Part shown: positions 3,187 to 23,601 of the stretch, piece by piece | How the letters are laid out: each line of letters begins with the position of its first letter | How positions within the stretch are numbered: position 1 is the stretch's first letter | Source of the DNA: Candidatus Woesebacteria bacterium RIFCSPHIGHO2_01_FULL_44_10 | GTDB lineage: Bacteria; Patescibacteriota; Microgenomatia; UBA8517 | Assembly (NCBI GenBank): GCA_001792465.1 | Contig: MGGO01000031.1 | Span: forward strand, 1,172 to 65,171 | Reading direction: 5' to 3' | Length of the DNA stretch: 64,000 bases | The notes under the pieces: generated by a model | What the model was told of the DNA's origin: nothing | Database searches by the model: none | What the model saw: only the letters and a program-made list of their open reading frames with translations | Position numbers and translations under genes: made by a program

Positions 3187-3262
3187 TGCGGGGTAGTCTA
3201 ATGGTAGTTGACGTCGCTCTCTGGAAGCGAAGATCCAGGTTCAAGTCCTGGCCCCGCAGCCA
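3187..3262 (+). tRNA. tRNA-Gln (anticodon CTG), with encoded CCA
   Basis: I folded the sequence by hand. The acceptor stem is TGCGGGG/CCCCGCA. The anticodon stem is TCGCT/AGCGA with loop CTCTGGA, giving anticodon CUG. The T-stem is CCAGG/CCTGG with loop TTCAAGT. The discriminator is G, followed by CCA. Confidence 0.8.
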
Positions 3263-3502
3263 AGACGGGCACCCCAGTGACCGTGATGCCTAGAATAGCT
3301 CGAAAACACCTTCAAAAACCCCAGTCTTTATTCAAGACATTCGTACCACACGCTTGTTGTTCGGACAAATGCCTTGAAAGGGGCCTTTTTGAGTCGTTAT
3401 GTTGATAGTTTAAAGTAGTGTATTACTCTGGAGTTTGAACCTAGTGTTCTGCGATAGCTTTGCCCGGTCAGTCGGGAATAGTACCGAATAATCCCATAAT
3501 AC

Positions 3503-4816
3503 TCAGTGTGCCCGTAGCGAGGTAACATTTCTATTTTGGATAAATAGTGGAAAGTCAAAGAGGTTAAATAATTCTCGTTTTTCTTCAGTGTTTTTGTTTG
3601 TGAGAACATATCTGGCATAATCTCTGATATCCCAAACCCTTGAATTTGGATTAATGTCCTGTTGGAGGAATATTGCTTCTCTCATGTTTTTAAATTCCTC
3701 TAAACCCTCTTGGATTTTGTCTGTGAGTATCAGTTCGTGCCGGTGGGCAATGTACATGAAGTTGATAAGTTTAAGTAAACTTTTCGCTAATTTTTCTTCT
3801 GACACATAAGGCTCTTTGCAATCGTGATCCACTTGGCGTGAGCAATGATAATAAATATGATATCTTGGTTCACCGACCAATCTTTGTCGGTATCTGTCTT
3901 CTCCAACAATACTTGCTTTGCAATTTGCACATTTTAAGAGCCCTTTATAGGTAAAGTTTTTAGATCCCCACTTGGACTTAGCAGGAACTGTTAGTTTTTC
4001 CTGAACTTCATCGTATAACTGCTTCGTAATTAGAGGAGGGTATGCCCCTTTGTACCAATTTCCACTTTTAATGGGGAATTCAAATTCTCCGTAGTAAAAT
4101 GGATTTTTAAGCATCAAATAAATTTGACTTAAGGTAACTTTCTTTCCTGATTTATTAGTGAAATTTATCTCATCTAGCCATTTTTTAATTTTTCTCCCAC
4201 TTGCTTTTTCATCAATAACTTTTGTGAACATTTGGGCAACAACTGCCCCTCTTTCTGGATCAATAATTACGTCTTTGATGCCATTAAAAGATCTATTCAT
4301 ATAACCAATTGGCGTTGGTCCTGGTCGAAATCCCATTTCGCATTTTGCTCTAATTCCGCGTTTAACATTTATTCCTTTTTGGTCATTTTCCAGTTTTGCC
4401 TGACTACAAAGGATCATGAGTAAAAACTTTTCATTGGGATTATTTGAAAAAGTTTGGGAAAAGGTTCTAATTTTTAATAGTTTTCCTTGATCCATCAGGT
4501 CGACTAACATACCAAGATCTCCAGCGTTTCTACTTAGCCTATCAGGAGCCCAAGTTAAAATCCCGTCAAATCTTTTCTCTCTGATGTCATTTAGCAACTT
4601 CATGAACATTGGCCTTTGCCCTGAGTCTTTTGCAGAATGGCTTTCTTGCAAAACCTCTGCAACTTTCAGATTTTCTTTAACTGCAAGTGCCTGCATTTCT
4701 TTTAATTGGCTGTCTATGCTCATTATTTGCCGCTCATCACTTTCCGAAGATTTTCGGGCATACAAGCAGTATTTTATTTCCGGGGTACTATCCATTCTAG
4801 GGAGGGAGAGTACCAC
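3503..4816 (-). CDS. Large serine recombinase (integrase)
   Basis: The N-terminal resolvase catalytic region is 'YCLYARKSS..SIDSQ'. A recombinase domain and a Cys-rich zinc-ribbon region ('CANCKAS','YYHCSRQ') follow, for a total of 437 aa. The gene lies about 240 bp from tRNA-Gln. Confidence 0.75.
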   Translation of the reverse strand: MVLSLPRMDSTPEIKYCLYARKSSESDERQIMSIDSQLKEMQALAVKENLKVAEVLQESHSAKDSGQRPMFMKLLNDIREKRFDGILTWAPDRLSRNAGDLGMLVDLMDQGKLLKIRTFSQTFSNNPNEKFLLMILCSQAKLENDQKGINVKRGIRAKCEMGFRPGPTPIGYMNRSFNGIKDVIIDPERGAVVAQMFTKVIDEKASGRKIKKWLDEINFTNKSGKKVTLSQIYLMLKNPFYYGEFEFPIKSGNWYKGAYPPLITKQLYDEVQEKLTVPAKSKWGSKNFTYKGLLKCANCKASIVGEDRYRQRLVGEPRYHIYYHCSRQVDHDCKEPYVSEEKLAKSLLKLINFMYIAHRHELILTDKIQEGLEEFKNMREAIFLQQDINPNSRVWDIRDYARYVLTNKNTEEKRELFNLFDFPLFIQNRNVTSLRAH

Positions 4817-4831
4817 AAAGGTGGGGGAAGT

Positions 4832-6319
4832 CTAGCCGAAGTATCCGCGGTTCATCATTTCTGTAATACTTAGGCCTCGGTTGGGTGGTGGTCCATAGTC
4901 GGCAATATATATCTGCGGATCTACATGCGTATCCGAAATCAGATGTAAAATTAGTATAGAGAAAGCATCTGCTAAATCATCATGCTTTTCAATTCCAAAC
5001 CCAACAAGTTGCTCAATCAGTCTTTCTGCCCCTTTTCTTGGAAATAAAATCTTGCCTGTTCTTATCATGTGTGTTGTTAAAGAAAGTCGCGCTCTTTTAT
5101 CGCTTCCTTTTAATTTAACTCCCTCAGCTGGTATCTCTTTTTGTTCCAGTTGCTGAGTGAAAGCTGACTGGTATGCAACCTCTTCAATAAGCAGCTTAGT
5201 TGGAGTTCCCTCTCCTAGTGCTTTTGATAAGTTTTTAGCCTCCTCAATCGCATCAGGGAAAGATAGACGTTTGTTTATAGGATTAGGAAGGATATAAATC
5301 TTTCTTTCTTCAGAATAGTCATAAACGCTGGCAGATACCATGGCTGTATAGTCGGCTGTATCTTTTTCAGATATTGCAAGGTCAACTCCGGTCAATGTGT
5401 ACATAAATTCGTTTCCCGTAGGTGGTCCATCGTAATATTGTATCCACTCAGGATGAACAATCCTGTCTTCGTCAGATATTATTGTCAGTAAGAACTCTCG
5501 CGACCATGAGGATTCACTTGCCACTTTTAACTTTTGTTCTTTTACTGTCTTTTCATCTGGAAATTTTCCCGGCCAAATAATTTTATCGTCTTTAATCAAA
5601 GGATATTCTTTATAAGTTCCACTTAGCTTGTTTTTAATAATTTGATTTTTAAGCCTCATCATCAACGAGTCTTCGTGCAACAAATTGCCAATAATTACAT
5701 ATTTAGAGTTGGGGTTCCCGGCTGGGATAACATCTCCAGTTAACCATTCATAAGATTTGTTTCGTCCCTCTCTGGTTTTTACTGAATTTAGATCTTCCAC
5801 ATCATCGCAAATTATCAAGTCCGGCCTGTTTTGTAAGTGCCGAAGCCCTCTGATGCTCTCACCGCTTGATATCGCCGTTATTCTGGTATTATATTTTGAA
5901 AGGACTAAAGAGTTTGCCCGCCATTCGTCATCATCTTGTCCAAATGGCCCAAAGTCAGACATGAGTGTCGTGTTTGTTTCAAACTCTTTCTTGATGTTAG
6001 ATAGTATCAACCGTGATTGTTGCTGGGTTTGACTGATGAGAATTATGAATTTTTTGTTTAAATTACCAACCATCGCCCAGATGGGGTATGAGAGTGTCAT
6101 TATTGTTGATTTTGCCGAGCCTCTAAATGCAACAATTACTACAAACTTCTCGCTCTCGTTTTGAGTTAAACCAAAAATCTCTTTTTGGAAATCTGCAGTC
6201 TTGAATTCCACATAATGAGGGAAGTAGGTATTGAAAAACCAGAAATGGCTACGTTTTGTAAGGTGTATGCGAAATGACCTGTCCTGGATAAGCTTTTCAT
6301 GAATTTTGTGATCTTCCAT
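4832..6319 (-). CDS. Phage terminase large subunit-like ATPase/nuclease
   Basis: Walker A-like 'AFRGSAKST' and Walker B 'LIICDDVED'. A C-terminal acidic nuclease-like region is present. The size is 495 aa. Confidence 0.55.
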   Translation of the reverse strand: MEDHKIHEKLIQDRSFRIHLTKRSHFWFFNTYFPHYVEFKTADFQKEIFGLTQNESEKFVVIVAFRGSAKSTIMTLSYPIWAMVGNLNKKFIILISQTQQQSRLILSNIKKEFETNTTLMSDFGPFGQDDDEWRANSLVLSKYNTRITAISSGESIRGLRHLQNRPDLIICDDVEDLNSVKTREGRNKSYEWLTGDVIPAGNPNSKYVIIGNLLHEDSLMMRLKNQIIKNKLSGTYKEYPLIKDDKIIWPGKFPDEKTVKEQKLKVASESSWSREFLLTIISDEDRIVHPEWIQYYDGPPTGNEFMYTLTGVDLAISEKDTADYTAMVSASVYDYSEERKIYILPNPINKRLSFPDAIEEAKNLSKALGEGTPTKLLIEEVAYQSAFTQQLEQKEIPAEGVKLKGSDKRARLSLTTHMIRTGKILFPRKGAERLIEQLVGFGIEKHDDLADAFSILILHLISDTHVDPQIYIADYGPPPNRGLSITEMMNRGYFG

Positions 6320-6773
6320 TTTCTTCCTCCTTTCCAGCGTCTGGAATAAGTGACGCCAGCTCCAGCGCTCTTCTCACCACCTCCTCCTGATCAGGTTCAA
6401 GTTTTTCAATTTGTTTATTGGGAGTTGTTATCTCAACTCTGGTTGCATATGTTTTGTGATGGTGTTTAAGCCAGAAAATAATTGCCGTCATGTTTTGCTC
6501 TTTTATTGCGGAAAGCAATTGCGATTCTGCAATGTCGTTAACAAACGAAGATCCTTCTTCCAAAGCCTCATCCGCAGCCTTTGAGAAAGCCTCATCTTCT
6601 TTTTTCCAGCGATAATATGTCGCTCTGCTCACCCCAGTTTTTTGGCAAGCAACCTGTACAACTGGCGTCTTTTTAAATTCCTCTATCAAAGCAACCCTTT
6701 TGTTGTGTTGTCTTTTTAGTATTGAGCTACTCATGATATTTTCTTTGTTTCCTTCCCTGCGAGCTTCTCCCAA
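6297..6773 (-). CDS. HTH protein, terminase small subunit-like
   Basis: HTH 'KTGVSRATYYRWKK'. It is co-oriented with and overlaps the TerL-like gene. Confidence 0.4.
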   Translation of the reverse strand: MGEARREGNKENIMSSSILKRQHNKRVALIEEFKKTPVVQVACQKTGVSRATYYRWKKEDEAFSKAADEALEEGSSFVNDIAESQLLSAIKEQNMTAIIFWLKHHHKTYATRVEITTPNKQIEKLEPDQEEVVRRALELASLIPDAGKEEENGRSQNS

Positions 6774-8080
6774 CGTTTCTTAATTACCTCTGCATATACA
6801 GGGGACTTTTCCATTAGGTAACATTTTCTTTTCATTTTCGTGGCTGCAATTAAAGTAGAACCACTTCCACCGAAGGGCTCGATTATAAGATCGCCACGCT
6901 TAGTTAAAACTTTTATATACGGAGTTAATATTTCAATAGGCTTTGTCCCAAAGATTATTCCCTGGCCGGAGGATTTTTCATCGGATGCTTTATATTCGAT
7001 AAAATCAGTTGGGCAATACTTTTTGCCTTTCTCGTAACTTTCCCAGTTTGGTTTTCCTGAAGTGGCAAAAATGGCAGTTTCATACTCCTCTTGAAGTAGA
7101 GGCTCCTCCTCTGGAGTCATATTTAAGGATACCTTTCCTGAGGTTCCAACCATTGCAAAGTCGTACTTGTTAAAAAACTTATACTTTGCAGCAAACCCCT
7201 GCATTCTATTGGGTAAATGCCAGATTATTGTATTTCTGTATTTCCAGTGTTTTTCTAGTTCATTCCAAATAGTTCTTAAATTTTTCGGGTTTTCATAGAT
7301 GATAATTGAGAAATCAGCTTTCTGAATCTTAGCAATGTTATTCATCCACAACTGCGTAAAGTCCGGAGGTAATACATCTGTTTCCAAATATCTCCTGTCT
7401 CTTTTGGCTCCGAAGCCAGTAATTGCTCCTTTATATTTTTTCTTTCCCCGCAGATAGTCCAGGATATATGGAGGGTCAGTAAAGCACATATCAGCCTTCT
7501 CACCATCCATTAACTTGAGCACATCTGCTTCAACAGTTGAATCACCACACATAAGCCTCGAGTCTCCTAATGCATAAACATTCCCCTTTTGGATTTTTAT
7601 TTCCTTGATGTCCAGTTTTTGAAGCTCTTTTTCCAAATCAAATTGCTCAGGCGTAATATCAATTTCAAAAATATCGTCCAGCTCTTCAGAGGTAAAGCCA
7701 ATTTCCGATAAAATGTTCTCATCGAAATCGGCCAGTAATTTCCAATCCCAATCTCCAAGATTTTTATTTAGCCTGAGGTTTAGCTCTTTTTCTTTACTCT
7801 CATCTGGAATATTTAGATAGACTACGGGGATCTTTTTAAAGCCTAAGTCCCTTGCAACTTTAAGTCTAAAGTGCCCGCCAATTACAATGTTCTTTCTTTT
7901 CTCTGCTCCATTTACAATTATCGGGTCAACCAGGCCAAATTCTCCAATGCTTTCTTTTAAGCCATGAATTGCCTCCTCAGACCATTTTCTGGGGTTGTAA
8001 GTTGCAGGTTTTAATTCGTTTATATCAACCTGAACGATGTTGAGCTGGTTGGATACAGTTTCCATAAGTATCTGAAGCAT
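6731..8080 (-). CDS. ParB-like nuclease domain fused to beta-class DNA N6-adenine/N4-cytosine methyltransferase
   Basis: N-terminal ParB/Srx-like motif. The MTase motifs are 'FTDPPY' (motif IV) upstream of 'EPFGGSGST' (motif I), which is the beta-class order. Confidence 0.7.
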   Translation of the reverse strand: MLQILMETVSNQLNIVQVDINELKPATYNPRKWSEEAIHGLKESIGEFGLVDPIIVNGAEKRKNIVIGGHFRLKVARDLGFKKIPVVYLNIPDESKEKELNLRLNKNLGDWDWKLLADFDENILSEIGFTSEELDDIFEIDITPEQFDLEKELQKLDIKEIKIQKGNVYALGDSRLMCGDSTVEADVLKLMDGEKADMCFTDPPYILDYLRGKKKYKGAITGFGAKRDRRYLETDVLPPDFTQLWMNNIAKIQKADFSIIIYENPKNLRTIWNELEKHWKYRNTIIWHLPNRMQGFAAKYKFFNKYDFAMVGTSGKVSLNMTPEEEPLLQEEYETAIFATSGKPNWESYEKGKKYCPTDFIEYKASDEKSSGQGIIFGTKPIEILTPYIKVLTKRGDLIIEPFGGSGSTLIAATKMKRKCYLMEKSPVYAEVIKKRWEKLAGKETKKIS

Positions 8081-8137
8081 AAAACACTATAAAATCAGAA
8101 GAAACGATAAAATTGGAGGAAAAAAGGAGGAAATTTG

Positions 8138-8761
8138 TTAATTCATAAGTTTCCGAGCATACAGCAATCTATGACCATGCTTTCGTACTCTGCGTATCCC
8201 AACTTCAATACCTGCACGCCGCAAATATTTTTTTAAATCCCTTCTTATGTATCCAATCCCCTTTGATTCATCGGTAACATCTATCTTGTCCAGGAATTCT
8301 TTATCACTCACATAGTTATTTTTATAAGTTAATAACATCCTCAAGAATCTGCCGTGCTTAGACCCTGTGGTAATAATGCTAATTGGTTGATTGTTAAAAA
8401 GAAAAATACCCTCAAATGTAATAATCATATTGAATACTCCTTCATTTTCTTTAACTATCTCAACTTCCTGAATATTGGCAACAGGTTCAAACTGTAGGGC
8501 AAATGGATTCAACGCATATTGGAAACGTCGTGCCATGTGTGCCTGTGTTTCTTGAATGCTTCTTAATAACTCTGCAAAAGGAAAATTTAAAGCCGCTGAA
8601 ACAACCTCGTTATAGTGTTTAACCATATTTATATGCGCCAACCTGATTTCTTCTACTTGTTTTGCCAAGGCCATAGTGAGAGTCAATGCCTGATTTGGGT
8701 AAAAACTTAAGATGTCCGTTCTTTCTTCCATATCTAATTTTATCAGGCTATGCAAGTACAA
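8138..8761 (-). CDS. Hypothetical protein
   Basis: ORF of 207 aa with no recognisable motif. Confidence 0.3.
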   Translation of the reverse strand: MYLHSLIKLDMEERTDILSFYPNQALTLTMALAKQVEEIRLAHINMVKHYNEVVSAALNFPFAELLRSIQETQAHMARRFQYALNPFALQFEPVANIQEVEIVKENEGVFNMIITFEGIFLFNNQPISIITTGSKHGRFLRMLLTYKNNYVSDKEFLDKIDVTDESKGIGYIRRDLKKYLRRAGIEVGIRRVRKHGHRLLYARKLMN

Positions 8762-8830: not shown

Positions 8831-11800
8831 ATGTCGAGATATTATAGAAAATTTGACGCCAAAAAATATTGGGCTAGTAAGCCTTACTGCGAAGTATGCA
8901 AGACCAAAAAAGTTAAATATGGGAGAATATGTAGTGAGTGTGAAAAGAAAGCGGGTTTTAAAGAAGTTGAGATGAAAATAAATAATGACAAAATTAACAA
9001 TGATGATCTGGTTGCAAAATTCGCCTCGGCAGATCTTGAGCATACAGAAGCTGATCAAAGGTTAATATCGCTTGTTGGATATTTAAAAGATTGTGCCCAG
9101 GCTCTGCTGCGCTCAGTTGCTTTGAATGATTTGGGCACAAAAGATGTTTCTTTTCTTCCGATGTCCCCCGATTCTTTAGAGAAGTTAGCAGCTGATGATC
9201 TGGTTCTCAAAGGGCAGGAAGTGCTTGACCTGCTTTATAAACTAAAGGCAAGACCAACAGAATTCGAATTAATACTTGGAACACTTTTTGTAAAAGGGTT
9301 CAAAGGAAAAGGGGACAAAGTAACTCGTATTAACGCTCCCCTTATTTTTATAAAGCTTGAAGCCGAGAAAACGGAAGATGACTCAGTAGTTTTTAGTGTT
9401 AAAGAAGACATGATACATCTCAACCAATCCTTAGTGGCTAGTTTGGTTAGTGTAATCAATGAAGAGGAATTGGAAATACGTTTTCAAGATTTATGGAGCG
9501 CAACGCCAGAATGGCCATTGTCTTTTGAATCAATCCAACAATTTTATGAAAGTTTCAATAATTATTTTCCTGAAATTTTTTCTACAGATGAAAAAATTAG
9601 TAATTTTGTTGAACTGGATTCTATAGAAGCTAAAAAAGAAAAATATCAGATTTGTCCAGCTCACTGTCTGATAGTAGCACCAAAATTGGCAGCCGAGGGG
9701 ACTGTTGTCGAAGAAATAAACCAAATCCTGCAGGATATGAAAAACAACACGTCTGCAGATTTTCTGTTTCTGGAGAATAAAGCTGGCGGGGACCCCGTGT
9801 CTGAGGTAATAGATCAAACAACTGATGGATATTCAGAAGGAGGAAGTGAGGAGAATGAAAAATGGCACAACCTTTTTCCGTTTGACCTTAGTGATACACA
9901 GAAGGGTATTGTGCGCGCAGCTAGAGAAAACAATCTGACCGTTGTTTCTGGGCCACCTGGCACAGGGAAATCGTATACCATTGCTGCTATTATTTTAGAT
10001 CATTTGTTGGGTGGAAAACGCGTATTATTTGTTTCCCGAATGGACAAAGCGGTCGAGGTGGTAAGCGAGTGGCTTGAAGAATCTGTTGGTACTTTTTCTA
10101 TTGCTAGATCTGGAGGAAGAAAAGCACAACGTGCTTTAGCTGATAAGCTCGATTCCATTACTGGTGCAAAGACTCCAGTGAAGCACTATACAAAGGAAGA
10201 AATCGAAAGTGTGCTCAATGGATATTCCGACGCGCAAGAAAAACTAACAACTCTTGAAGAGCAGTTTTTGAATACGCTGTCTCAAGAAAGAACGTGGTCT
10301 AAGGTAAAGGAAGAAATTAATAACCTTGATGACAAAATAAAAACTGATCCAGATCTTTTATCTTTACCCATAGACAAGAAAAAAGCTGAGAAATTAAAGG
10401 AGAAAATCCGTGGAGCAGATTTTCTCATCAAGAATAAGAAGTTTTTCGTTCAGACATGGTGGGGAAACCACGTTCTCTCAAATGTCAAAAAACAGTTAGG
10501 TGCTAGAGATAATGCTACCCCGGATGAGTTAATTTATAAGGCAGAGCGCATAGAGAATGAAAGGAAGCTGGAAGAAGTTGAAAATGAAATCTCCAAATTT
10601 GACGAAATAAACCAATTGTGGACACAAATTTCTAGTCGAAAAGAAGAATTAAAGGATCTTGCTTTAAATAACCTAAAGGCTATGTTGTTGGGCAACTTAT
10701 ACACCATTGTACATAATTATGATAAACGTGTTGAGCTAAGAAACTTTATAAAATCGCTACGAACAGCAAATATGCGAGAAAAGTTGGCGCTCTTAGAGAA
10801 AGTCGAAACTGAAACTCTACTAAGCGCATTCCCTTGTTGGGCAAGTACAACTTATCACCTTTCCCAGATATTGCCCATAGAGCCTGGAATGTTTGATCTA
10901 GTCATTTTCGATGAATCTAGTCAGTGCGATTTAGCCTCTACGTTACCCGCTCTTTATAGAGCAAATAGAGCATTAATAGTTGGTGATCCGAAACAACTAA
11001 CTCATGTCGTATTTTTGGGGCGCCAGGCAGAATACTCTGCGTTTGCAAAGAATAACGTACCACCTGAAATGCAGGCCAACTATCGATTTTCGACACAAAG
11101 CCTGTTTAATGTGGCCGAAAATGCAGTTCCTCAAGCAAACTATTTTATGCTCGACGAACATTTTCGTTCTGATCCACATATCATAGGTTTTTCTAATAAG
11201 ATGTTTTATGAAGACAACATTAGAATTATGACCAATAGACCGAAACTCGGCTCAAATAAGGAAGATGCAGCAATTCAAATAGAATATATAAACGGCAAAC
11301 GTACCAATGGAGCAGCTAATCCGAAAGAGATAGAACATATTTTTTCACACGTAAGGCAGCTAATTGCGCAATCTCCGTTGGATAAACCAACTTCAATTGG
11401 AATACTTTCCCCTTTTAGGGACCAAGTAAATGCAATTACTAAAGAACTTCCGAATTGTGTAAATCTAAACGAAGTTGAGCGACATAATATTGTCGTGGGT
11501 ACTGCTCATAGTTTACAAGGTAACGAAAAGGATGTGGTAATTTTATCTTTGTCTCTTGACCCTAAGTTTCACCATGGGACATTGAGATTTCTAGAAACCC
11601 CTAATGTCTTTAATGTATCTATCACGCGCGCCAGAAAGAAATTAATTGTCATATCCTCCGTCGCTCTAGGCGACTTACCAAACGGGTTACTTAAGGAATT
11701 TTTATTATATGCAGGTGACTCTGCGACGAATATATTGCCTCGTGATGTGTTTGAATCCAGATTTGAGGAACAAGTTGCTCAAGCACTGGAACGAGAAGGT

Positions 11801-12064
11801 TTAAAGGTCTGGCCTCAATATGAGGCTGCCGGATTCTCAATCGACTTAGTAGTTAGAGATGGTAAGAATTGGATTGCAGTTGAGTGTGATGGGCCAACTC
11901 ATTTTGATATGAAACAAGGGCAGAGTTTTAACGATGCGTGGAGGCAAGGAATATTGGAAAGAGCTGGCTGGAAATTTGTAAGAATTCCTCATAGGGATTG
12001 GGAAAGAAATTCAGAAGAGCAAATTGAAAAGGTAAAGAAAAAATTGGATCAACTGCAGTATTAA
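8831..12064 (+). CDS. Zn-ribbon + Upf1-like SF1 helicase (AAA_11/AAA_12) + C-terminal DUF559 (Vsr-like PD-(D/E)xK) endonuclease
   Basis: N-terminal CxxC..CxxC. Walker A 'VVSGPPGTGKSYTIAAI' and Walker B 'VIFDESSQCD'. 'GDPKQL' and 'VGTAHSLQGNEKDVVILS' are helicase motifs. The C-terminal 'IAVECDGPTHF...AGWKFVRIP' is a DUF559 signature. Confidence 0.75.
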   Translation: MSRYYRKFDAKKYWASKPYCEVCKTKKVKYGRICSECEKKAGFKEVEMKINNDKINNDDLVAKFASADLEHTEADQRLISLVGYLKDCAQALLRSVALNDLGTKDVSFLPMSPDSLEKLAADDLVLKGQEVLDLLYKLKARPTEFELILGTLFVKGFKGKGDKVTRINAPLIFIKLEAEKTEDDSVVFSVKEDMIHLNQSLVASLVSVINEEELEIRFQDLWSATPEWPLSFESIQQFYESFNNYFPEIFSTDEKISNFVELDSIEAKKEKYQICPAHCLIVAPKLAAEGTVVEEINQILQDMKNNTSADFLFLENKAGGDPVSEVIDQTTDGYSEGGSEENEKWHNLFPFDLSDTQKGIVRAARENNLTVVSGPPGTGKSYTIAAIILDHLLGGKRVLFVSRMDKAVEVVSEWLEESVGTFSIARSGGRKAQRALADKLDSITGAKTPVKHYTKEEIESVLNGYSDAQEKLTTLEEQFLNTLSQERTWSKVKEEINNLDDKIKTDPDLLSLPIDKKKAEKLKEKIRGADFLIKNKKFFVQTWWGNHVLSNVKKQLGARDNATPDELIYKAERIENERKLEEVENEISKFDEINQLWTQISSRKEELKDLALNNLKAMLLGNLYTIVHNYDKRVELRNFIKSLRTANMREKLALLEKVETETLLSAFPCWASTTYHLSQILPIEPGMFDLVIFDESSQCDLASTLPALYRANRALIVGDPKQLTHVVFLGRQAEYSAFAKNNVPPEMQANYRFSTQSLFNVAENAVPQANYFMLDEHFRSDPHIIGFSNKMFYEDNIRIMTNRPKLGSNKEDAAIQIEYINGKRTNGAANPKEIEHIFSHVRQLIAQSPLDKPTSIGILSPFRDQVNAITKELPNCVNLNEVERHNIVVGTAHSLQGNEKDVVILSLSLDPKFHHGTLRFLETPNVFNVSITRARKKLIVISSVALGDLPNGLLKEFLLYAGDSATNILPRDVFESRFEEQVAQALEREGLKVWPQYEAAGFSIDLVVRDGKNWIAVECDGPTHFDMKQGQSFNDAWRQGILERAGWKFVRIPHRDWERNSEEQIEKVKKKLDQLQY

Positions 12065-12094
12065 AATCTGATATACTTTGACCTAGTCTCGAAG

Positions 12095-13510
12095 GTGAGA
12101 TATACTTCAACTATGAGTGATTCAAACAAAATTAAATGTCCAAAATGTGGAGAAAGTTTTGAACCTTCTGAGGCATACAAACATGAGTTAGAAGAATCTT
12201 TACTCAAAGAGACTCAGGCAAAGCATCAGGAAGATATTAAACGGCTTGAAAAGGAGAAGCTAGATCTTGCCGAATCAACGCGTCTCGAAACAGAAAAGAA
12301 AGCTAAAAAAGAGTTAGAAACTGCGGTAGAAGCAGCTAAAGAGGAAGCTGAGGCAAAAAATAAGCAAAATTCGAAACTTAAAGAAGAACTGGAAGAACAA
12401 AGTCAACTTTTAGCAGACCTAAAAGAAGAAAAAAGTAAGCTTCGTCGTGATCATGAACAAGAGCTTGAGGATGTCAGAAGGCAAACCGCCGAGATATCTC
12501 GTAAAGAAGCCGAAGAAAAAATTCGCAAAGAGCTTAAGAGTCAAATAACAGCCTCAAATGAGGAATCTAAAGCTCGTGAAGATCAAAACAAAGAACTCCA
12601 AGATCAGGTAAAAGAGTTACTTAAACAGATGCGCGAACTTAAAGATGATAGGGATAAATTAGGAATTGAATATGAAAAGAAGTTGCTTGAAGGTCAAGAC
12701 AAGATAAAACAAGATGCAAAAAAAGAAGCCCAGGACGAACTTAACCTCAGAATAGCTGAAAAAGATAAAAAACTTCAAGATGCAGAGAAACAAATACTTG
12801 AGTTGCAAAGGAAAATCCAACAAGGCCCCCAGAACCTACAAGGCGAGGTTCAGGAATTAGAACTACAAGAAATTCTATCAGTAGAATTTCCTTTTGATGA
12901 AATAAAAGAAGTGCCTAAAGGTGTCAGCGGAGCTGATGTACTTCAGACAGTTAAATCTCAGACTGGAGAAGTTTGTGGAACTATTATCTGGGAATCCAAG
13001 CGTACGAAGACTTGGGGTTCGGATTGGATTCAAAAATTAAAAGATGACCAAAGAATGATTAAAGCTGATCTCGCTATTTTGGTGTCTACAGTTCTGCCAC
13101 AAAATGTTTCTTCAATTGGCATTATTGATGGAGTTACGATCTGTGAATTGAGAATGGCTGTGAGCATTGCCCAACTTCTTAGACAGCAACTTATGAAGGT
13201 GCATTCGGCACAGGTTGCCAACGATGGCAAAGCTACAAAAGCTGAAATTGTTTACAATTATCTGATTAGTAATGAGTTTAGGCAGAGGATAGAGGTTTGG
13301 GTTGAATATTTTAAGGATAGACAGGAAAAAATCAATAGAGAAAGAATCTACTTTAACAAGAAGTGGCAAGAAGAAGAGAAAAGTATACAAAAAGTTATTA
13401 CAAACACAGCAGGTATTTATGGTGACTTGCAAGGCTTAATAGGAAATGCTTTACCAAAAGTGAGCTATCTTGAGCTTCCTGATTCTACAGAAGAGACAGA
13501 AAATAATTGA
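12095..13510 (+). CDS. Zn-ribbon / coiled-coil / C-terminal PD-(D/E)xK nuclease-like protein (DUF2130/RmuC-like)
   Basis: 'CPKCGESF' sits at the N-terminus. A coiled coil of about 250 aa rich in E/K/Q follows. The C-terminal 'GADVLQ...GTIIWESKRTK' gives a D...ExK nuclease core. Confidence 0.55.
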   Translation: MRYTSTMSDSNKIKCPKCGESFEPSEAYKHELEESLLKETQAKHQEDIKRLEKEKLDLAESTRLETEKKAKKELETAVEAAKEEAEAKNKQNSKLKEELEEQSQLLADLKEEKSKLRRDHEQELEDVRRQTAEISRKEAEEKIRKELKSQITASNEESKAREDQNKELQDQVKELLKQMRELKDDRDKLGIEYEKKLLEGQDKIKQDAKKEAQDELNLRIAEKDKKLQDAEKQILELQRKIQQGPQNLQGEVQELELQEILSVEFPFDEIKEVPKGVSGADVLQTVKSQTGEVCGTIIWESKRTKTWGSDWIQKLKDDQRMIKADLAILVSTVLPQNVSSIGIIDGVTICELRMAVSIAQLLRQQLMKVHSAQVANDGKATKAEIVYNYLISNEFRQRIEVWVEYFKDRQEKINRERIYFNKKWQEEEKSIQKVITNTAGIYGDLQGLIGNALPKVSYLELPDSTEETENN

Positions 13511-13606
13511 TTAATAAAGGTAAGTGTAAGTACTAAATTTTTGTCGTACAACAACCATTCTCAGTAGTGAATTTATTATTATTATCAAATGAGTTAAAAT
13601 ACGGCT

Positions 13607-14590
13607 ATGTCCGATAAAAATATGCATGAAAGGATTAATCAAATTTCAAAAGAAACAGGAGTACCGACAAAAAAGGTTCTCGATTTGTTATTTGCACTGC
13701 GAGATGGCGAAGTTGTTGAAAATAATGAATTGGTCCGAAAGGTAGGTGTTTCTAAAAATGCCCTAAATAAGGTAAAAGAGAGGCTGGCCTCGGTATTAGA
13801 ACCTGTGTCAAAAGACACACAACTTGATGGCGACCATGTTCAAGAAATACGAGCAATCTTTGATGAAGGCTATAAATTTGAAGATGCTATGTGGACTATC
13901 CTAGAAGATGATAAATACAAAAAGGCATCTGAATTGTTAGAAACTATTTCCGATAAGAGACCTTCACCTGAAAGAAGGTTTGATCAATTTACTGCAACTA
14001 TAGAAACAACGGCTCGTCGTGCTTCTCTCCTTCAATTCTTTGGAGACATTAAAGGTAAAAGAATTTTGTTTCTAGGTGATGACGATTTTACCTCGATAGG
14101 AGTGGCTTCTTTGGGATTGGCTGCTCATATAGAAGTACTAGATGTAGATAAACGCATTCTTGAGAGCATCAAAGGTGTCGCTGAGACAGAAGGTTTTACT
14201 ATTTCAACCACAAGAAGTGATTTAACACAGAGGCTGCCGAATCAGCTTATGAGAAATTTCGACATTGTATTTACAGATCCTCCGTACACGGAAAATGGCA
14301 TGAATCTATTTCTCTCAAGAGCTATTCAGGCATTGGATCCGGATAATCACGCAGCAAGGATATATACGTGCTATGGGAATAGTGACAGGGCTAGGGAGAG
14401 ATACCTGCCTGTACAAAGGTTATTTACAGAATCCGGATTAATGATGAGGTGGGTTTTTGACGGATTTAATCGCTACAGAGGGGCAGAATCGATTGGCAGC
14501 TCAAGTGCATTGTTAATAGCTGATGTAACACCAAAGACAAAACCTTTAGTTAAAGGAGGCTATGATAAACCCATCTATACCAACAATTGA
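13607..14590 (+). CDS. DUF43/BpsA-family aminopropyltransferase-like protein (class I SAM-fold; predicted dcSAM-dependent)
   Basis: Motif I is 'ILFLGDDDFTSIG' and the motif 'FTDPPY' is present. The N-terminus is winged-helix-like. The gene directly precedes and overlaps an AdoMetDC gene. Confidence 0.5.
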   Translation: MSDKNMHERINQISKETGVPTKKVLDLLFALRDGEVVENNELVRKVGVSKNALNKVKERLASVLEPVSKDTQLDGDHVQEIRAIFDEGYKFEDAMWTILEDDKYKKASELLETISDKRPSPERRFDQFTATIETTARRASLLQFFGDIKGKRILFLGDDDFTSIGVASLGLAAHIEVLDVDKRILESIKGVAETEGFTISTTRSDLTQRLPNQLMRNFDIVFTDPPYTENGMNLFLSRAIQALDPDNHAARIYTCYGNSDRARERYLPVQRLFTESGLMMRWVFDGFNRYRGAESIGSSSALLIADVTPKTKPLVKGGYDKPIYTNN

Positions 14591-14909
14591 ACACCATACG
14601 GCTCTTATTAAACTTGAAAAATTTCCCAACAATCAAAACAGCCTAGAACAGTTTGCTGATAAGCTAATAGAAAGTCTTAATTTGACTGTGGTTAAAAGCG
14701 TTTTTCATTCTTTCAAACCTCAAGGGAAAACTCTTGTATATATTCTTTCAGAGTCACACCTTGCAATTCACACATGGCCAGAATACAAGCTTCTTCATAT
14801 TGATTTGGTAAGTTGTGTTAAGGTCTTAAATTTTGAAAATTCATTGAAACTAATATTAAATAATTATGGGATTAGTAGTTTAAAGGTAAATCCGGCACTA
14901 GAAAGTTGA
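14562..14909 (+). CDS. speH: S-adenosylmethionine decarboxylase proenzyme (pyruvoyl-dependent, SpeH-type)
   Basis: 'VYILSESHLAIHTWPE' contains the ES self-cleavage site and the class 1 AdoMetDC signature. The size is about 115 aa. Confidence 0.75.
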   Translation: MINPSIPTIEHHTALIKLEKFPNNQNSLEQFADKLIESLNLTVVKSVFHSFKPQGKTLVYILSESHLAIHTWPEYKLLHIDLVSCVKVLNFENSLKLILNNYGISSLKVNPALES

Positions 14910-14997
14910 TGCCAGACAGTTTTGTGATACAATTATCATTAACAAAACTTAAATAAGAAAGTTTTGATGGTTAAACAAGCCATTTTAAATACGAGCT

Positions 14998-15567
14998 ATG
15001 GCAACTCGAAACCACACTAAACTAATAGTGGATCTTCTGGAGCTATATGGAGAGGATCCAAACAGAGAGGGACTCAAAGAAACTCCCGAAAGAGTTCTTC
15101 GAATGTACAAGGAGCTTCTGGGTGGTTATCAACAAGACCCATCTTCGGTAATTAAGACTTTCGAAGGAAATGGACATAATGACTTGGTGACTGTTAGCGA
15201 CATCGATTTTTATAGTCTTTGCGAACATCACATGATACCCTTTTTTGGAAAAGTTCATATAGGTTATATTCCAAACGGCCGAATACTTGGACTTTCGAAA
15301 TTCGTTCGATTGACAGAAATTTACGCCAGGAGACTTCAGGTACAGGAGCGGCTAACCAGACAAATAATGGATGCAATCGAAACAAATTTGCACCCACAAG
15401 GAGCAATCGTTCATGTTGAGGCGGAGCATCTTTGTATGGTAATGCGTGGTGTCAAGAAGAAAGGGGCAATCACCAAAACTACAGCTCTTTGTGGAGATTT
15501 TGAAAAAGACCCTTTACTTGTGGATAGATTTTTTAGACATATAAATCGTAGTGATAATTCAAAATGA
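14998..15567 (+). CDS. folE: GTP cyclohydrolase I
   Basis: 189 aa. 'FYSLCEHHMIPFFGKVHIGYIP' and 'VEAEHLCMVMRGV' are FolE signatures. Confidence 0.85.
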   Translation: MATRNHTKLIVDLLELYGEDPNREGLKETPERVLRMYKELLGGYQQDPSSVIKTFEGNGHNDLVTVSDIDFYSLCEHHMIPFFGKVHIGYIPNGRILGLSKFVRLTEIYARRLQVQERLTRQIMDAIETNLHPQGAIVHVEAEHLCMVMRGVKKKGAITKTTALCGDFEKDPLLVDRFFRHINRSDNSK

Positions 15568-16019
15568 AGGTAACAAAACAAATTGAGTGGGATATGGGGC
15601 ACAGAGTAACTAACCATCACTCTAAATGTCAAAACATACATGGCCACCGCTATCGGGCCGAAATATGCATGGAGGGGAAATTAGTAGACATAGAAGGCAT
15701 ATCAGAAGAAGGGATGGTTATTGATTTTGGAGATATTAAAAAGATTGCCATGGAACATGTCCACGATGTTTTAGATCATGGATTTATGGTCTGGAGGAAA
15801 GATAAGGAGGTTATGAAATTTTTTGAGGATAACCCAAAGCAAAAGCACATAATTGTTGATTTTGTGCCAACTTCCGAAAACATTGCAGCCTGGATTTTTA
15901 AAGAGTTAGATGGACGATTTATCGATAAATTTAAAACAGATTTGAGGCTTTGCTGGGTCAAACTTTGGGAAACACCAACGAGTGTTGCGATCTGCACCAG
16001 AGAGGATTTAGAAAAATAA
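15564..16019 (+). CDS. queD: 6-carboxy-5,6,7,8-tetrahydropterin synthase (PTPS family)
   Basis: 151 aa with a 'CQNIHGHRY' Zn-binding motif. It has a 4-nt overlap with folE. Confidence 0.8.
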   Translation: MKVTKQIEWDMGHRVTNHHSKCQNIHGHRYRAEICMEGKLVDIEGISEEGMVIDFGDIKKIAMEHVHDVLDHGFMVWRKDKEVMKFFEDNPKQKHIIVDFVPTSENIAAWIFKELDGRFIDKFKTDLRLCWVKLWETPTSVAICTREDLEK

Positions 16020-16020
16020 A

Positions 16021-16809
16021 ATGAGTGGCGAGAGACAGATTTACCAACCCACACCGGAGGATCGGGAAAGAATCAGGCCAAAACCTGACCTTCTTAAAGT
16101 AAGCGGAGATGGAGTTTTTGCTACTTTGCAAGGTGAGGGAGTTACAGCAGGAGAGCCTTCAGTATTTTTGCGGTTGCACTATTGCAACTTGACTTGTGGT
16201 AAACCTGAAGGGTGGAAGTGCGACACTTGGTATACATGGGATAAGGAAAGGGAGGAGTATTGGACGGAGTCATCTGATGTGAGTTTTAGAGAAATAGCAG
16301 CGACTATGGAAGCTGCTTGGGAAAGCGCTTTTGATGCTAATGGGACAAAAAGGGCGGTTATTACCGGAGGTGAGCCTCTTCTGCAACAAAGTAAAATTAT
16401 TAAGCTAATAGAAGAATTACCAGATTGGGACATAGAAATTGAGACTAATGGCACGATCGTTCCCGCCCCTGAGCTCGGTGATTGTCAATTTAATTGCTCG
16501 CCAAAACTGGAGAACAGCGGAAACAGTAAAGCGCGTAGATATAACCCATCGGCGCTAAAAGCAATAAATGCACTACCCAACTCATGGTTTAAATTCGTAG
16601 TTTCAGACACAAGCGATCTTGATGAAATAGATGAACTCGTGCGAGATTGCGAGCTCAATGAAGATAAATTACTTATAATGCCGGAGGGTCAAACAGCAGA
16701 TGTTGTCGAAGGACATGCACAACTTGTGAGAGATGCTGTTAATGAACGAGGGTGGAAAATTACTATGAGAAATCAACTAATTTGGTATGGTGACAAAAGA
16801 AGAACTTAA
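16021..16809 (+). CDS. queE: 7-carboxy-7-deazaguanine synthase (radical SAM)
   Basis: Cys cluster 'CNLTCGKPEGWKC' and 'ITGGEPLL'. It sits in que gene context. Confidence 0.7.
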   Translation: MSGERQIYQPTPEDRERIRPKPDLLKVSGDGVFATLQGEGVTAGEPSVFLRLHYCNLTCGKPEGWKCDTWYTWDKEREEYWTESSDVSFREIAATMEAAWESAFDANGTKRAVITGGEPLLQQSKIIKLIEELPDWDIEIETNGTIVPAPELGDCQFNCSPKLENSGNSKARRYNPSALKAINALPNSWFKFVVSDTSDLDEIDELVRDCELNEDKLLIMPEGQTADVVEGHAQLVRDAVNERGWKITMRNQLIWYGDKRRT

Positions 16810-17949
16810 ATGATAATTGGATCAATAGACAATAAAGAAGTAGATAGTTCAAATTTAATACTTGATACAGTTGATAATTTTCAGCTTGATGAAGTTGTTA
16901 GCAATGCATTGTTGCTTACACTGGCCGGATACTTAGAAAAAGATGACATCACAGTAAACGGTAAACAATACTTTGATAAAAAGAGACTTGAACAATTCTT
17001 TAGTTACGTTCTTAACGATAAAAGGGCAGCGCCACGAAAGTATAACCTTCAATTAAGTTTTTCGAACAAAAACCACGAAGTAAATTCTGCAAAGAAAAAC
17101 AATTACAAATACATTATTTCATATAGTGGTGGTATAGACAGCACTGCAGGGCTTTTGTACGCACTAGACAAGGGATACCCCATACAACCAGTTTGGGTTG
17201 GTTTTGGGCAAAAAAATGAAAAAGATGAGTTAGAGGTAATAAATAAAATCTGCAAGAAACTTAAAACCAGACCTATTGTTATCAATATTAATCTAAAGAG
17301 ATATGTTGATGAAGGTTGGAACAGGTGGAAAATGGGGATTATTCCTGGAAGAAACTATATTTTTGCGTCTATTGCTGCTTCTATGGTAAACCTATCAAGT
17401 AGCGATAAAAACACAATATATATTTGCGCGCATAAAGAAGAAATCAATCCTGTTAATACGGATAAAAGTGAAAGGTTTTACAACACATGTACTAAGATCT
17501 TTACAAAAAGCTACAACAAAGATATCGAGCTTACTACTCCATTTTTTAATGCCACTAAACCGGAAATTATCTATTACTGGATCAAGCACTGGAAACAGAA
17601 ATATAACATTTCACCACAAGAAACTGTTAGTTGCTATCACGGTACCAACTGTGGAATTTGTAAAGCTTGTATAAATCGTGCAGTTGCTTTTGCGTGTTGT
17701 GGGCTACAAACAGAAAGTTATAAAAATGATCCCTTTAAGGATACCGAGCATGTGATTCAAGAAGGATATATTGATCGATTTAATATATTAAAATTAGAAC
17801 GAAAACTTGATTTTCTTTTTGCCCTTAACTTTAACAAAAATTCCCTGCCAACAAACTTGAGAAACTTCGTAGATACAAACTATAAAAGATACAGCAACAA
17901 AATAATCGACAGACAAAAAATGATTAGAGAGGGTTTAAACATAAAATGA
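16810..17949 (+). CDS. queC: 7-cyano-7-deazaguanine synthase-like PP-loop ATPase (QueC) with an N-terminal extension of about 100 aa
   Basis: PP-loop 'ISYSGGIDST'. The C-terminal Zn site is 'CYHGTNCGICKAC'. The N-terminal extension was not recognised. Confidence 0.7.
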   Translation: MIIGSIDNKEVDSSNLILDTVDNFQLDEVVSNALLLTLAGYLEKDDITVNGKQYFDKKRLEQFFSYVLNDKRAAPRKYNLQLSFSNKNHEVNSAKKNNYKYIISYSGGIDSTAGLLYALDKGYPIQPVWVGFGQKNEKDELEVINKICKKLKTRPIVININLKRYVDEGWNRWKMGIIPGRNYIFASIAASMVNLSSSDKNTIYICAHKEEINPVNTDKSERFYNTCTKIFTKSYNKDIELTTPFFNATKPEIIYYWIKHWKQKYNISPQETVSCYHGTNCGICKACINRAVAFACCGLQTESYKNDPFKDTEHVIQEGYIDRFNILKLERKLDFLFALNFNKNSLPTNLRNFVDTNYKRYSNKIIDRQKMIREGLNIK

Positions 17950-18617
17950 AGCTATCAGTTGAATTACATAGCCTAGAGAGTAAGGATTCATTAACCTTAC
18001 TAAAAGCAATATATAAATCACTAGATGATTTCAAATCAGTGACCAAAGTTGATTTAGATAATATCCAAATTACGTGTACTAATAGCCATCGGCAGATGGA
18101 GCAAATACTTGGTTACAAGCGCCCAATGTGGGGAGTAAGCACTATCAAGAAAGGAAAGATATTTTTATATAATCCTAGGCTGTGGAACAAAAAACAAACA
18201 GGACACACTCCGGGCGATGTGGTAGCCAGCATTACTCATCAACTAGTACATCTTTACTTTGAGCAGGAAAAAATTAAATCACCTGTCTGGTTTGAGGAAG
18301 GGTATGCAACATATGTTAGCGATAGACAAAATGAAAAATTTAGGAAAAATGAGCTGAAAAAACTAGTTAAAAAGTATGGCGTATGTGACTATAACAGTCT
18401 AAAGGTCAGCTTTGCTAAACTTTCTGTTCCTGCGTTGTATTATCAAAGTTCATACGGCTTCATGTTTTATCTAGTTAAGCTACAAAAAGAAAATTCGCTT
18501 AACAAGTTAACTGATAAGTTAAAAAATGGAGAAAATTTCGAAAATAGTTTCATAAACATTTATGGCAGAAGTGCAAAAGATATATGGGAAGAGTTTAACA
18601 ATAAATTAATCAAATAA
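17946..18617 (+). CDS. Hypothetical protein with an HQxxH motif (possibly a metallopeptidase-like fold)
   Basis: 'ITHQLVHLYFEQE...EEGYATYV'. It is translationally coupled within the operon. Confidence 0.3.
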   Translation: MKLSVELHSLESKDSLTLLKAIYKSLDDFKSVTKVDLDNIQITCTNSHRQMEQILGYKRPMWGVSTIKKGKIFLYNPRLWNKKQTGHTPGDVVASITHQLVHLYFEQEKIKSPVWFEEGYATYVSDRQNEKFRKNELKKLVKKYGVCDYNSLKVSFAKLSVPALYYQSSYGFMFYLVKLQKENSLNKLTDKLKNGENFENSFINIYGRSAKDIWEEFNNKLIK

Positions 18618-18618
18618 T

Positions 18619-21152: not shown

Positions 21153-21780
21153 ACCTTTTAATTGCAAATACTTCAGCAAAATCGCATTGCTCATGTAGCA
21201 ATCCTCGGTATTGATTTAAACCTTTTATTGCCAAGTCAATTCTGGAAGTTTCTAATTGCGATTTGTAATACGACATGGCTTTCATCTTAATTCCAATATA
21301 TTTAGTAATATCTTCAACTAGATTGTAAGCTTGAAGAGGCTTGTGCACTTCGTATAAAATCAACCCTTTTGTTTTTTTATTAGAATTTATATTGTATCTC
21401 CAGTAAGCTTGGGAAATTATTTGATAGGAAATTTTATGTTCATAATCAGCATCAAGGTCGTGGTTTATGTAAATAAAATCTGGTTTAATTTTTTTCCAAT
21501 ATTTTATAATTTTTGAAATATTCTGAACTGACACCTTGAATGTTTGATCTTTTAGTCGGAGAAATTGGCAATCAGTTATTTTCATATATGAACAAACTTT
21601 TTTCGCTTCTTCCTCTCTTCGTTTTTCTATCCTGTCGCCAGAAGATAAATATTGAATATAAACGTTGTTATTATTTTCTATCGCTTTAGCAATAGTTCCT
21701 CCACACCCTATAATTTCGTCATCTGGATGGGGTGCTATTACTAAAATTTTGTTTTTGGTACTTTTAGATGAATTTATCAT
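21130..21780 (-). CDS. PIG-L/LmbE-family N-acetylglucosaminyl deacetylase
   Basis: 'ILVIAPHPDDEIIGCGGTIA' signature. Confidence 0.7.
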   Translation of the reverse strand: MINSSKSTKNKILVIAPHPDDEIIGCGGTIAKAIENNNNVYIQYLSSGDRIEKRREEEAKKVCSYMKITDCQFLRLKDQTFKVSVQNISKIIKYWKKIKPDFIYINHDLDADYEHKISYQIISQAYWRYNINSNKKTKGLILYEVHKPLQAYNLVEDITKYIGIKMKAMSYYKSQLETSRIDLAIKGLNQYRGLLHEQCDFAEVFAIKRFSSLFET

Positions 21781-21825
21781 GAGCCTGTAGTATTATATCA
21801 AAGCTAATCGTAAATAACATTATAT

Positions 21826-23599: not shown

Positions 23600-23601
23600 T
23601 C

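Follow-up and report, generated by a model that had tools for sequence, protein, structure and literature searches.

A candidate helper-dependent phage satellite with its own terminase at a tRNA-Gln gene of Candidatus Woesebacteria

The gene module next to tRNA-Gln

The stretch of DNA analysed here (hereafter the window) comprises 64,000 nucleotides of contig MGGO01000031.1 (positions 1,172 to 65,171) from the assembly GCA_001792465.1 of Candidatus Woesebacteria bacterium RIFCSPHIGHO2_01_FULL_44_10, a genome from aquifer metagenomes. Near its left end, a tRNA-Gln gene is followed by five minus-strand genes. They encode a large serine recombinase (LSR), a terminase large subunit (TerL), a small helix-turn-helix (HTH) protein resembling a terminase small subunit (TerS), a ParB-methyltransferase fusion (ParB-MTase) and a hypothetical protein. 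All five genes lie where the initial annotation, which read them as part of an integrative element, had placed them. We argue that they are, on balance, probably the core of a mobile element inserted by the LSR at the 3' end of the tRNA-Gln gene, namely a phage-derived satellite that depends on a helper and brings its own terminase. The features concerned are as follows.

3187-3262, plus strand: tRNA-Gln(CTG) (ARAGORN; Rfam RF00005, 60.7 bits), the proposed integration target (attB side)
3503-4816, minus strand: LSR (Pfam PF00239 Resolvase, PF07508 Recombinase and PF13408 Zn_ribbon_recom)
4832-6319, minus strand: TerL (ATPase and nuclease), T7/Terminase_6 type (phrog_38, E 2.6e-83)
6297-6773, minus strand: TerS-like small HTH protein (several TerS PHROGs, best E 2e-11; in Pfam, generic HTH only)
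6731-8080, minus strand: ParB_N and N6_N4_Mtase fusion, the ParB-MTase (Pfam PF02195 and PF01555; phrog_498, E 1e-82)
8138-8761, minus strand: conserved hypothetical gene (no Pfam, PHROG or PADLOC match)

The recombinase gene is convergent with the tRNA gene. Its product has an N-terminal resolvase catalytic domain with the nucleophilic Ser, a recombinase domain and a zinc ribbon. The best PHROG match is phrog_95, integrase (E 2.5e-61), and the region of the catalytic Ser is alignable to the catalytic domain of the TP901-1 integrase. In TerL, the Walker A and B motifs align to the T7-type terminase structures PDB 4bij and 8dgc, and the catalytic motif residues are invariant across an alignment of 29 sequences; the match to Pfam Terminase_6C is slightly below the cutoff. 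Neither TerL nor the LSR has a defence-system match in PADLOC. Judging from its profile matches, the product of 6297-6773 is probably TerS, the small terminase. The true start of this gene may be further downstream, giving a protein of 145-158 amino acids. Homologs of the 8138-8761 gene are found directly upstream of the MTase gene in six other loci. The AlphaFold2 model of its product is unusable (pLDDT 41); by eye, the protein is a possible DNA-binding regulator.

A conserved gene set across the candidate phyla radiation

TerL homologs abound in the candidate phyla radiation (CPR, Patescibacteria). At E <= 1e-10 there are at least 4271, many of them 55-60% identical and situated on contigs of 100-450 kb named Roizmanbacteria, Parcubacteria or Patescibacteria. 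A scan of one genome per species revealed at least 304 species with a TerL relative, and the best 80 loci from these were used for the family analysis (compared loci bear labels such as L009, L031 or L138). They cover Saccharibacteria, WWE3, Levy-, Kuenen-, Moran-, Berkel-, Dojka-, Gracili- and Peri/Peregrinibacteria, among others.

In all 72 loci with enough upstream sequence, TerL is immediately preceded on its own strand by the ParB-MTase and TerS-like genes, and in each of the 72 the TerS-like gene adjoins and overlaps TerL. A second MTase often comes after the ParB-MTase. A co-oriented LSR is found downstream of TerL in 48 of the 60 loci with at least 8 kb of downstream sequence; the spacing between the two genes is 33-216 bp in 27 loci and 0.9-7.8 kb in 30. 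When the other neighbouring open reading frames (ORFs) were clustered into families, none occurred in more than 26 of 82 loci. The same gene set was found in more than 100 independent loci, and this recurrence places it beyond chance. In a rough neighbour-joining tree the LSR-linked TerLs form one clade with intermixed host taxa, and the portal-linked phage TerLs fall outside. The mixing of host labels within the clade points to horizontal spread.

Many family members are IMG/VR entries. One of these, IMGVR_UViG_3300032737_000190 (55 kb, filed as a virus), contains two full MTase-TerS-TerL-LSR modules, L102 and L112, which is consistent with tandem or multiple copies and with viral pipelines calling such elements phages. 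No description of the module or the family was found in a full-text literature search of incomplete coverage, and a prior description is possible. The terminase mentions in PMC12366544 relate to an escape mutant of T4. Structural genes are present in the CPR prophages that PMC6509639 and PMC7739484 report.

Absence of virion genes and relation to CPR phages

Portal, major capsid, tail and lysis genes are absent from the window between 3.2 and 45 kb and from the family loci. In agreement with the initial annotation, no portal, capsid or tail gene was present among the window ORFs scanned or read from 3.2 to 50 kb. The 109 ORFs situated between TerL and the LSR in the family encode superinfection-exclusion proteins (Ltp, Sie, DUF4352), nucleases, MarR, ABC transporters, NUDIX proteins, helicases and the Avd protein of diversity-generating retroelements (DGRs). 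None of the 109 matches a portal, capsid or tail family. As a positive control, the same scan finds portal, MuF-type minor head, maturation protease and major head genes in most phage relatives, that is, IMG/VR loci with a TerL 35-44% identical and no LSR (0 of 16). DGR parts (an RVT_1 reverse transcriptase plus bAvd) lie between TerL and the LSR in about seven loci, for instance at 19003-20373 of L010, and DGRs are thus recurrent cargo of family elements.

In a complete Campbellbacteria prophage (CP064977, L175) the gene order is: replication genes, ParB-MTase, Dcm, TerS, TerL, portal-MuF, protease, capsid, connectors and tail. By this comparison, the element family looks like the same type of CPR phage minus everything after TerL, leaving TerL beside cargo and the integrase end. 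A phage of the L138 type (TerL 41% identical) comes from the same metagenome as the window contig. The portal family of L138-type phages is present as prophages in Campbellbacteria and Patescibacteria chromosomes; it is about fivefold rarer than the TerL family and mostly found on phage-sized contigs. L138-type or related CPR phages are therefore named here as candidate helpers.

The kinship with phages bears on two other explanations. The first holds that the element is integrative and that its terminase-MTase genes have a role outside the virion, either as an addiction module that stabilizes the island in the manner of restriction-modification (R-M) or in the processing of replication intermediates. 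The strict pairing of an MTase with a nuclease-ATPase recalls the logic of R-M, helper genes are not apparent near many copies, and no replication genes were recognised. However, the order MTase-TerS-TerL is that of the head of the packaging and morphogenesis operon in bona fide phages, so that the linkage can be understood as inherited from phage packaging. The ATPase and nuclease motifs of TerL are, moreover, those of packaging motors, and we consider a non-virion role improbable.

The second assumes a complete virus whose novel structural proteins, hidden among unannotated ORFs, were missed by the profiles. Several small ORFs in the bounded elements described below have no family match, and a Saccharibacteria phage has been reported without an identifiable capsid gene (PMC6509639). 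Yet L031, a bounded element of 9.6 kb, has a single unannotated ORF above 150 amino acids (302 amino acids), too little for portal, capsid, tail and lysis. Viruses that use a TerL need a portal and an HK97-fold capsid, and both are readily detected in the related phages. A complete virus is thus scarcely credible.

Integration at tRNA genes

A tRNA gene (Gln, Ser, Glu, Lys or Asn) lies downstream of the LSR, on the opposite strand, in 27 of 60 loci scanned, and upstream of the module in only two of the 60. A convergent tRNA gene within 3 kb of the LSR occurs in 14 of 55 loci (binomial P = 1.3e-5). In several family members, exact direct repeats join the 3'-end region of the tRNA gene to a site 2.4-5.7 kb upstream of the MTase gene. 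The elements bracketed in this way measure 9.6-16 kb. Their repeats are:

L031: 34 nt, 97%, consisting of the last 5 nt of tRNA-Ser and 29 nt of trailer, the same geometry as repeat Y of the window (see below)
L069: 18 nt
L061: 17 nt
L065: 15 nt

Bounded elements hold an S24 repressor of the CI/LexA type, divergent from small unknown genes, along with one or more MTases, TerS, TerL, the LSR and morons. No replication, tyrosine-integrase or virion genes were found in the bounded elements L031 and L069, and neither these two nor the window element have a primase or rep gene. Many family members have an SOS-type repressor; in the window copy, only the uncharacterised 8138-8761 gene occupies that position, and no S24 regulator was found. 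The family is a phage-derived, tRNA-linked and LSR-bearing integrative one, in which the packaging-initiation module is intact and the virion genes are missing.

It might be thought that the window genes are a chance prophage remnant at tRNA-Gln, left non-functional after random deletion of the structural genes. This was one of the readings offered by the initial annotation. The lack of virion genes fits it, as do the diverged junction repeat of this copy, the insertion sequence (IS), gene fragments and LSR remnant in its surroundings, and the fact that no excised form was seen (see below). However, an identical minimal set in an identical order recurs in the more than 100 independent CPR loci, cleanly bounded copies exist, the ORFs are all full length with invariant TerL catalytic motifs, and the LSR-linked TerLs form one clade. 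Because independent random decay would not converge on one pattern, the remnant explanation is largely refuted at the family level, and we regard it as very unlikely.

The ends of the element in the window

Two kinds of sequence mark the proposed ends. One is a repeat, Y and Y', which would correspond to the junctions with the chromosome; the other, X, is a conserved non-coding sequence found in the family loci.

3257-3379, plus strand: repeat Y, tRNA-proximal junction repeat (putative attL region), matching 26165-26287
26165-26287, plus strand: repeat Y', distal junction repeat (putative attR region), matching Y
26007-26169, plus strand: X1, conserved end sequence with TGTCTCA heptamer array, at the distal end of the proposed element E1
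40333-40506, plus strand: X2, second copy of the end sequence, sharing 73% identity with X1 across 164 nt (E 1e-17) and 81% with X3
44814-44990, plus strand: X3, third copy, at the proposed outer edge of the island; GC content reaches flank level at about 46 kb

Y begins with the last 6 nt of tRNA-Gln and lies 124 nt away from the LSR gene. The two copies share 72% identity over 123 nt (E 2e-14), with a best segment of 25 nt (3267-3291) at 92%. An exact duplication of the tRNA-Gln 3' end was sought in the window and discarded as a marker, the diverged Y/Y' repeat being all that is present.

X1 lies immediately inside Y', abutting the distal junction repeat. In the alignment, X consists of a TGTCTCA heptamer array (GAGACA...TGTCTCATTTGTCTCA...TGAGACA), a GTTATAAGGA box and a GGTTCCAGACC...GCTCCGCCA segment ending in CAGCCA. 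It occurs in 18 other family loci of different lineages, always distal and inverted relative to the module. A core of 26-39 nt keeps 90-100% identity even between loci whose proteins are about 50% identical, and for X2 the core agrees with many other loci at 92-100%. The X core of L031 is situated 76 nt inward of the distal direct repeat. A Y-like sequence comes after X in both L042 and L058; the latter, considered as a second clean attL/attR example, serves only in part, since its tRNA-proximal side is different. In L031 and L034 every copy of the heptamer is changed in concert to TGTCCC/GGGACA, the pattern that would be expected of repeated binding sites for one protein. X may play a part in the life cycle of the element.

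Three other identities of X were considered. A structured RNA was rejected (RNAalifold consensus of -0.68 kcal/mol, 0 compensatory pairs, no Rfam match). The same holds for the notion that the X 3' ends are decayed 3' halves of tRNA-Gln (shuffle-test p = 0.22, 0.31 and 0.72). It is also unlikely that X represents the repetitive extragenic palindromic (REP) sequences of a nearby Y1 transposase fragment, since X is found at the distal end of the module in 18 loci, in other genomes.

The Y/Y' repeat together with X argues for a far end near 26.2 kb. This would place E1 at about 3263-26170, roughly 23 kb and about four times the span flagged in the initial annotation; E1 itself probably heads a tandem array of about 42 kb (see below). 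The att duplication which that annotation had proposed to look for is thus present in diverged form, and it joins X and the LSR in speaking for an integrative element at tRNA-Gln. It must be noted that the converse test, by which a missing duplication together with a gene order shared by related genomes was to refute integration, is not strictly valid, because a serine recombinase needs no long att duplication.

Comparison with relatives bears on the flanks. The closest relatives of the module are L009 and L092, with a TerL 86-87% identical. Nucleotide homology to L009 spans only 4047-7732 of the window, and the LSRs are no more than 57-64% identical (57% in L009), diverging in the C-terminal, DNA-recognition part. 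The tRNA-Gln of L009 is 8.3 kb beyond its LSR. Orthologs of the left-flank RNase_H_2 gene occur in L173 and L174, where the module does not follow. In L174, orthologs of the genes at 50-56 kb of the window lie about 6 kb from the RNase_H_2 ortholog, as against about 47 kb in the window, in a flank that is rearranged and from which the tRNA is absent. Ancestral gene order, the alternative raised in the initial annotation, is accordingly not shared by these relatives, and the comparison indicates that the block is lineage-specific. No clean empty site was found, a metagenome search with the exact tRNA having returned only the window's own sequence.

Cargo and the low-GC island

GC content is about 0.37 between 3 and 46 kb, as against about 0.44 on either side (1-3 kb and past 46 kb). 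By this profile, the five genes stand at one margin of a low-GC block some 42 kb long, in which the following were delimited.

8831-25986, no strand: proposed E1 cargo, between the module and X1/Y' (Pfam, PADLOC; GC about 0.37 versus 0.44 in the flanks)
26288-40332, no strand: proposed older tandem element E2, with no recombinase left (Pfam, PADLOC, low GC; tentative boundary taken from X2)
40507-44813, no strand: proposed decayed element E3, holding the LSR remnant and ending at X3
41364-41465, minus strand: second LSR remnant, 34 amino acids (tblastn against residues 346-379 of the L009 LSR: 85%, E 1e-13)

By blastn, the LSR remnant is 81% identical to L009 over 102 nt. X2 and X3, this remnant and the return to flank GC at about 46 kb suggest two older, decayed tandem elements. 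The low-GC block at 3.3-45 kb can thus tentatively be seen as an array of E1, E2 (about 26.3-40.5 kb) and E3 (about 40.5-45.0 kb).

With a boundary near 26.2 kb, the helicase-nuclease, DUF2130, polyamine and 7-deazapurine genes become cargo of E1, in keeping with the earlier suggestion that the helicase-nuclease and que genes belong to the island. The first of them (8831-13510) encode a 1077-amino-acid SF1 helicase (AAA_11/AAA_12) fused to an MTES_1575/DUF559-type nuclease and, next to it, a coiled-coil DUF2130 protein. In PADLOC the helicase-nuclease matches PDC-S37 (E 7e-68), Mokosh MkoA/MkoC and Hhe. These matches make it, with DUF2130, a candidate defence pair, transcribed divergently from the module. 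At 13607-14909, a branched-chain polyamine synthase (BpsA, BpsA_C domain) and a pyruvoyl AdoMet decarboxylase form an overlapping gene pair. The region 14998-24567 opens with a 7-deazapurine set: GTP cyclohydrolase I (FolE), PTPS/QueD, a QueE-like protein (named by eye only) and a QueC-like protein with a 100-amino-acid N-terminal extension. It continues with a Peptidase_MA-like protein, a carbamoyltransferase, a family 2 glycosyltransferase, a PIG-L deacetylase, two APH-like kinases and an RrnaAD (Erm/KsgA-type) rRNA methyltransferase. No tgt or DpdA gene was seen in this region. Going by gene content, a small biosynthetic cluster of the nucleoside type, with self-resistance, seems a better fit than queuosine salvage or DNA modification. 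NUDIX, GrpB and NUDIX genes complete the E1 cargo. A NUDIX and GrpB pair is duplicated at 24620-25728 and 42689-43590 (about 83% nucleotide identity over 300 nt), each pair just inside a copy of X, like shared distal-end cargo of two related elements.

In E2, the region 26375-27914 holds an IS3-type transposase (HTH orfA and rve orfB in overlapping frames) and, adjoining it, a 146-amino-acid C-terminal fragment of a Type ISP/MmeI-like R-M protein. Intact R-M genes that neighbour the module in L009 and L011 share 74% nucleotide identity with this fragment. A reverse transcriptase at 27963-29254, minus strand, best matches that of type VI retrons (PADLOC RT_VI, E 6e-72) and is adjacent to an XRE-type HTH gene. 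A Cas4-like nuclease and an HD protein are further E2 contents. An archaeal-type S-adenosylmethionine synthetase (31298-32521; PF01941, E 6e-85) lies near a shikimate dehydrogenase and sugar-modifying genes, and E2 additionally holds glycosyltransferase, F420 ligase-like, hydrolase and GNAT genes. Beside X2, at 40620-41042 on the minus strand, is a truncated IS200/Y1-type (REP-associated-like) transposase fragment, whose weak Pfam match (E 4e-4) is below the cutoff. In the host flank, a 124-nt inverted repeat (60938-61061 and 62487-62610, 85% complementary) surrounds about 1.4 kb with an ORF at 61399-62583 and may represent the ends of an insertion sequence.

The company of defence genes invites yet another explanation, in which the module has been domesticated for the benefit of the host. 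It would interfere with packaging, competing for the procapsids of invading phages or cleaving at them, or, like a gene transfer agent (GTA), work with structural genes located elsewhere in the genome. Its very wide distribution in the CPR and its high conservation are in favour, as is its frequent location amid defence genes (MmeI-type R-M, Shedu, Druantia, DGR, retron and Mokosh-like); satellites are also known to protect their hosts. On the other hand, an integrase, att repeats and a phage-type repressor accompany the module, and the phylogeny of TerL does not agree with host labels. Homologs of the portal found in related phages are, as noted, some five times rarer and mostly confined to phage-sized contigs, and the missing PADLOC matches of TerL and the LSR also speak against it. 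Domestication is thus unlikely, if less so than a non-virion role.

A model for the element

The preferred explanation remains a helper-dependent satellite. Its ancestor would have been among temperate, siphovirus-like CPR phages and would have lost all genes past TerL (portal, capsid, tail and lysis). The ParB-MTase, the TerS-like gene, TerL, the recombinase and a regulatory region are kept, together with a variable cargo of defence, superinfection-exclusion and metabolic genes. In the proposed cycle, the recombinase would join attP, located beside the end sequence X, to the 3' end of the tRNA gene and its trailer. Upon induction or infection by a helper phage, the element would excise. TerS and TerL would then recognise and cut its DNA and load it into procapsids of the related helper, and the methyltransferase may modify the DNA, either as protection from restriction or as a mark of the packaging site. 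For the copy in the window, excision, dependence on a helper and packaging are all presumed.

Several points weigh against this explanation. Neither an excised circle nor an attP junction nor an empty attB was found; of the 58 whole-contig loci, not one is circular, and all 17 contigs carrying the exact TerL share one context. No replication gene or recombination directionality factor was recognised in the bounded relatives. The junction repeat of the window is only 72% identical, and this copy may therefore be old or immobile. The boundary at 26.2 kb is drawn from one diverged repeat and X, and one nearer 8.8 kb is possible. The host labels of many metagenome-assembled genomes are unreliable and the TerL tree is a crude neighbour-joining one. 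Finally, no described precedent was found for a satellite that supplies TerL but not the capsid, and so none for the loading of helper capsids by a foreign TerL.

A wider form of the proposal can be entertained, which we hold to be plausible but short of probable. It supposes pan-lineage, helper-dependent CPR satellites defined by TerS, TerL and ParB-MTase without capsid, moved by an LSR with an X-adjacent attP and several tRNA targets, arranged in tandem and serving as a main vehicle by which these ultra-small bacteria exchange defence and metabolic cargo. In that case satellites, not phages, would account for most 'terminase' or 'prophage' signals in CPR genomes.

The CPR makes up a large share of bacterial diversity, and few of its phages are known. 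The occurrence of a terminase-bearing element in hundreds of CPR species implies that helper phages exist in matching numbers, most of them so far unseen, and offers a route of gene flow between lineages thought to exchange little DNA. Viral-detection pipelines file these loci as viruses, and counts of CPR prophages may be inflated by satellites. If true, the range of known satellite strategies would be widened by one that combines a complete terminase with a lack of capsid genes. For work on the CPR, which is only now becoming tractable, serine recombinases that target tRNA genes and have a defined end sequence are candidate genetic tools. In the window itself, the 42-kb low-GC block with its defence, polyamine and 7-deazapurine genes is explained as horizontally acquired.

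Comparison with known systems

Prophages and islands of the phiC31, Bxb1, TP901-1, SPbeta and SCCmec type are known to integrate in protein-coding genes or specific intergenic sites, with minimal identity. The element resembles them in its resolvase, recombinase and zinc-ribbon domains and in having the integrase beside one att site. It differs in that the family is found at tRNA 3' ends, with junction repeats of 15-34 nt (about 120 nt in the window) and a conserved end sequence. Tycheposons, which Hackl and colleagues are said to have described in 2023, are reportedly cargo elements at tRNA genes that form tandem arrays in hypervariable low-GC islands, some with serine recombinases. Their hosts, unlike those of the present family, are marine cyanobacteria, and they are not known to have the conserved terminase-MTase module or an X-type end.

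The temperate, siphovirus-like CPR phages (L138, L175) share the order ParB-MTase, (second MTase), TerS, TerL with the element, their TerLs being 35-44% identical, and are the probable ancestor of the family. In contrast to the element, they possess portal-MuF, protease, capsid, connector, tail and replication genes; in the element, TerL is followed, either at once or within a few kb, by an LSR, and X is present as well. GTAs are chromosomal structural clusters that are not excisable and have no integrase. The element, by contrast, has an integrase and att repeats; no structural gene cluster lies near the module, and portal homologs are rare on chromosomal contigs. It is neither a complete prophage nor a GTA.

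The phage-inducible chromosomal islands (PICIs), including the Staphylococcus aureus pathogenicity islands (SaPIs), provide a closer parallel. They too are site-specific islands of about 10-20 kb with an integrase at one end, a phage-type repressor, their own small terminase that redirects packaging, no virion or lysis genes, and defence and accessory cargo. However, PICIs use a tyrosine integrase with AlpA/Stl-type regulation, as opposed to the LSR of the element and the S24 CI/LexA-like regulators of its family. The element furthermore carries a full TerL and a ParB-MTase, resides in CPR hosts, and shows no primase/replicase module, nor were capsid-remodelling or helper-interference genes recognised in it. 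Of the alternatives in the initial annotation, 'phage satellite or PICI-like' survives in part: a satellite-like nature is favoured, while PICI in the strict sense fails on the replication module and the type of integrase. Its 'prophage remnant', as a product of chance decay, is disfavoured by the conservation of the same minimal gene set across the CPR. Capsid-forming PICIs (cfPICIs) come near in another respect, as both TerS and TerL are encoded and packaging is fully satellite-specific, but they add capsid, portal, protease and head-tail connector genes, none of which is in the element. By analogy, the element would work most like a satellite of the PICI or cfPICI type.

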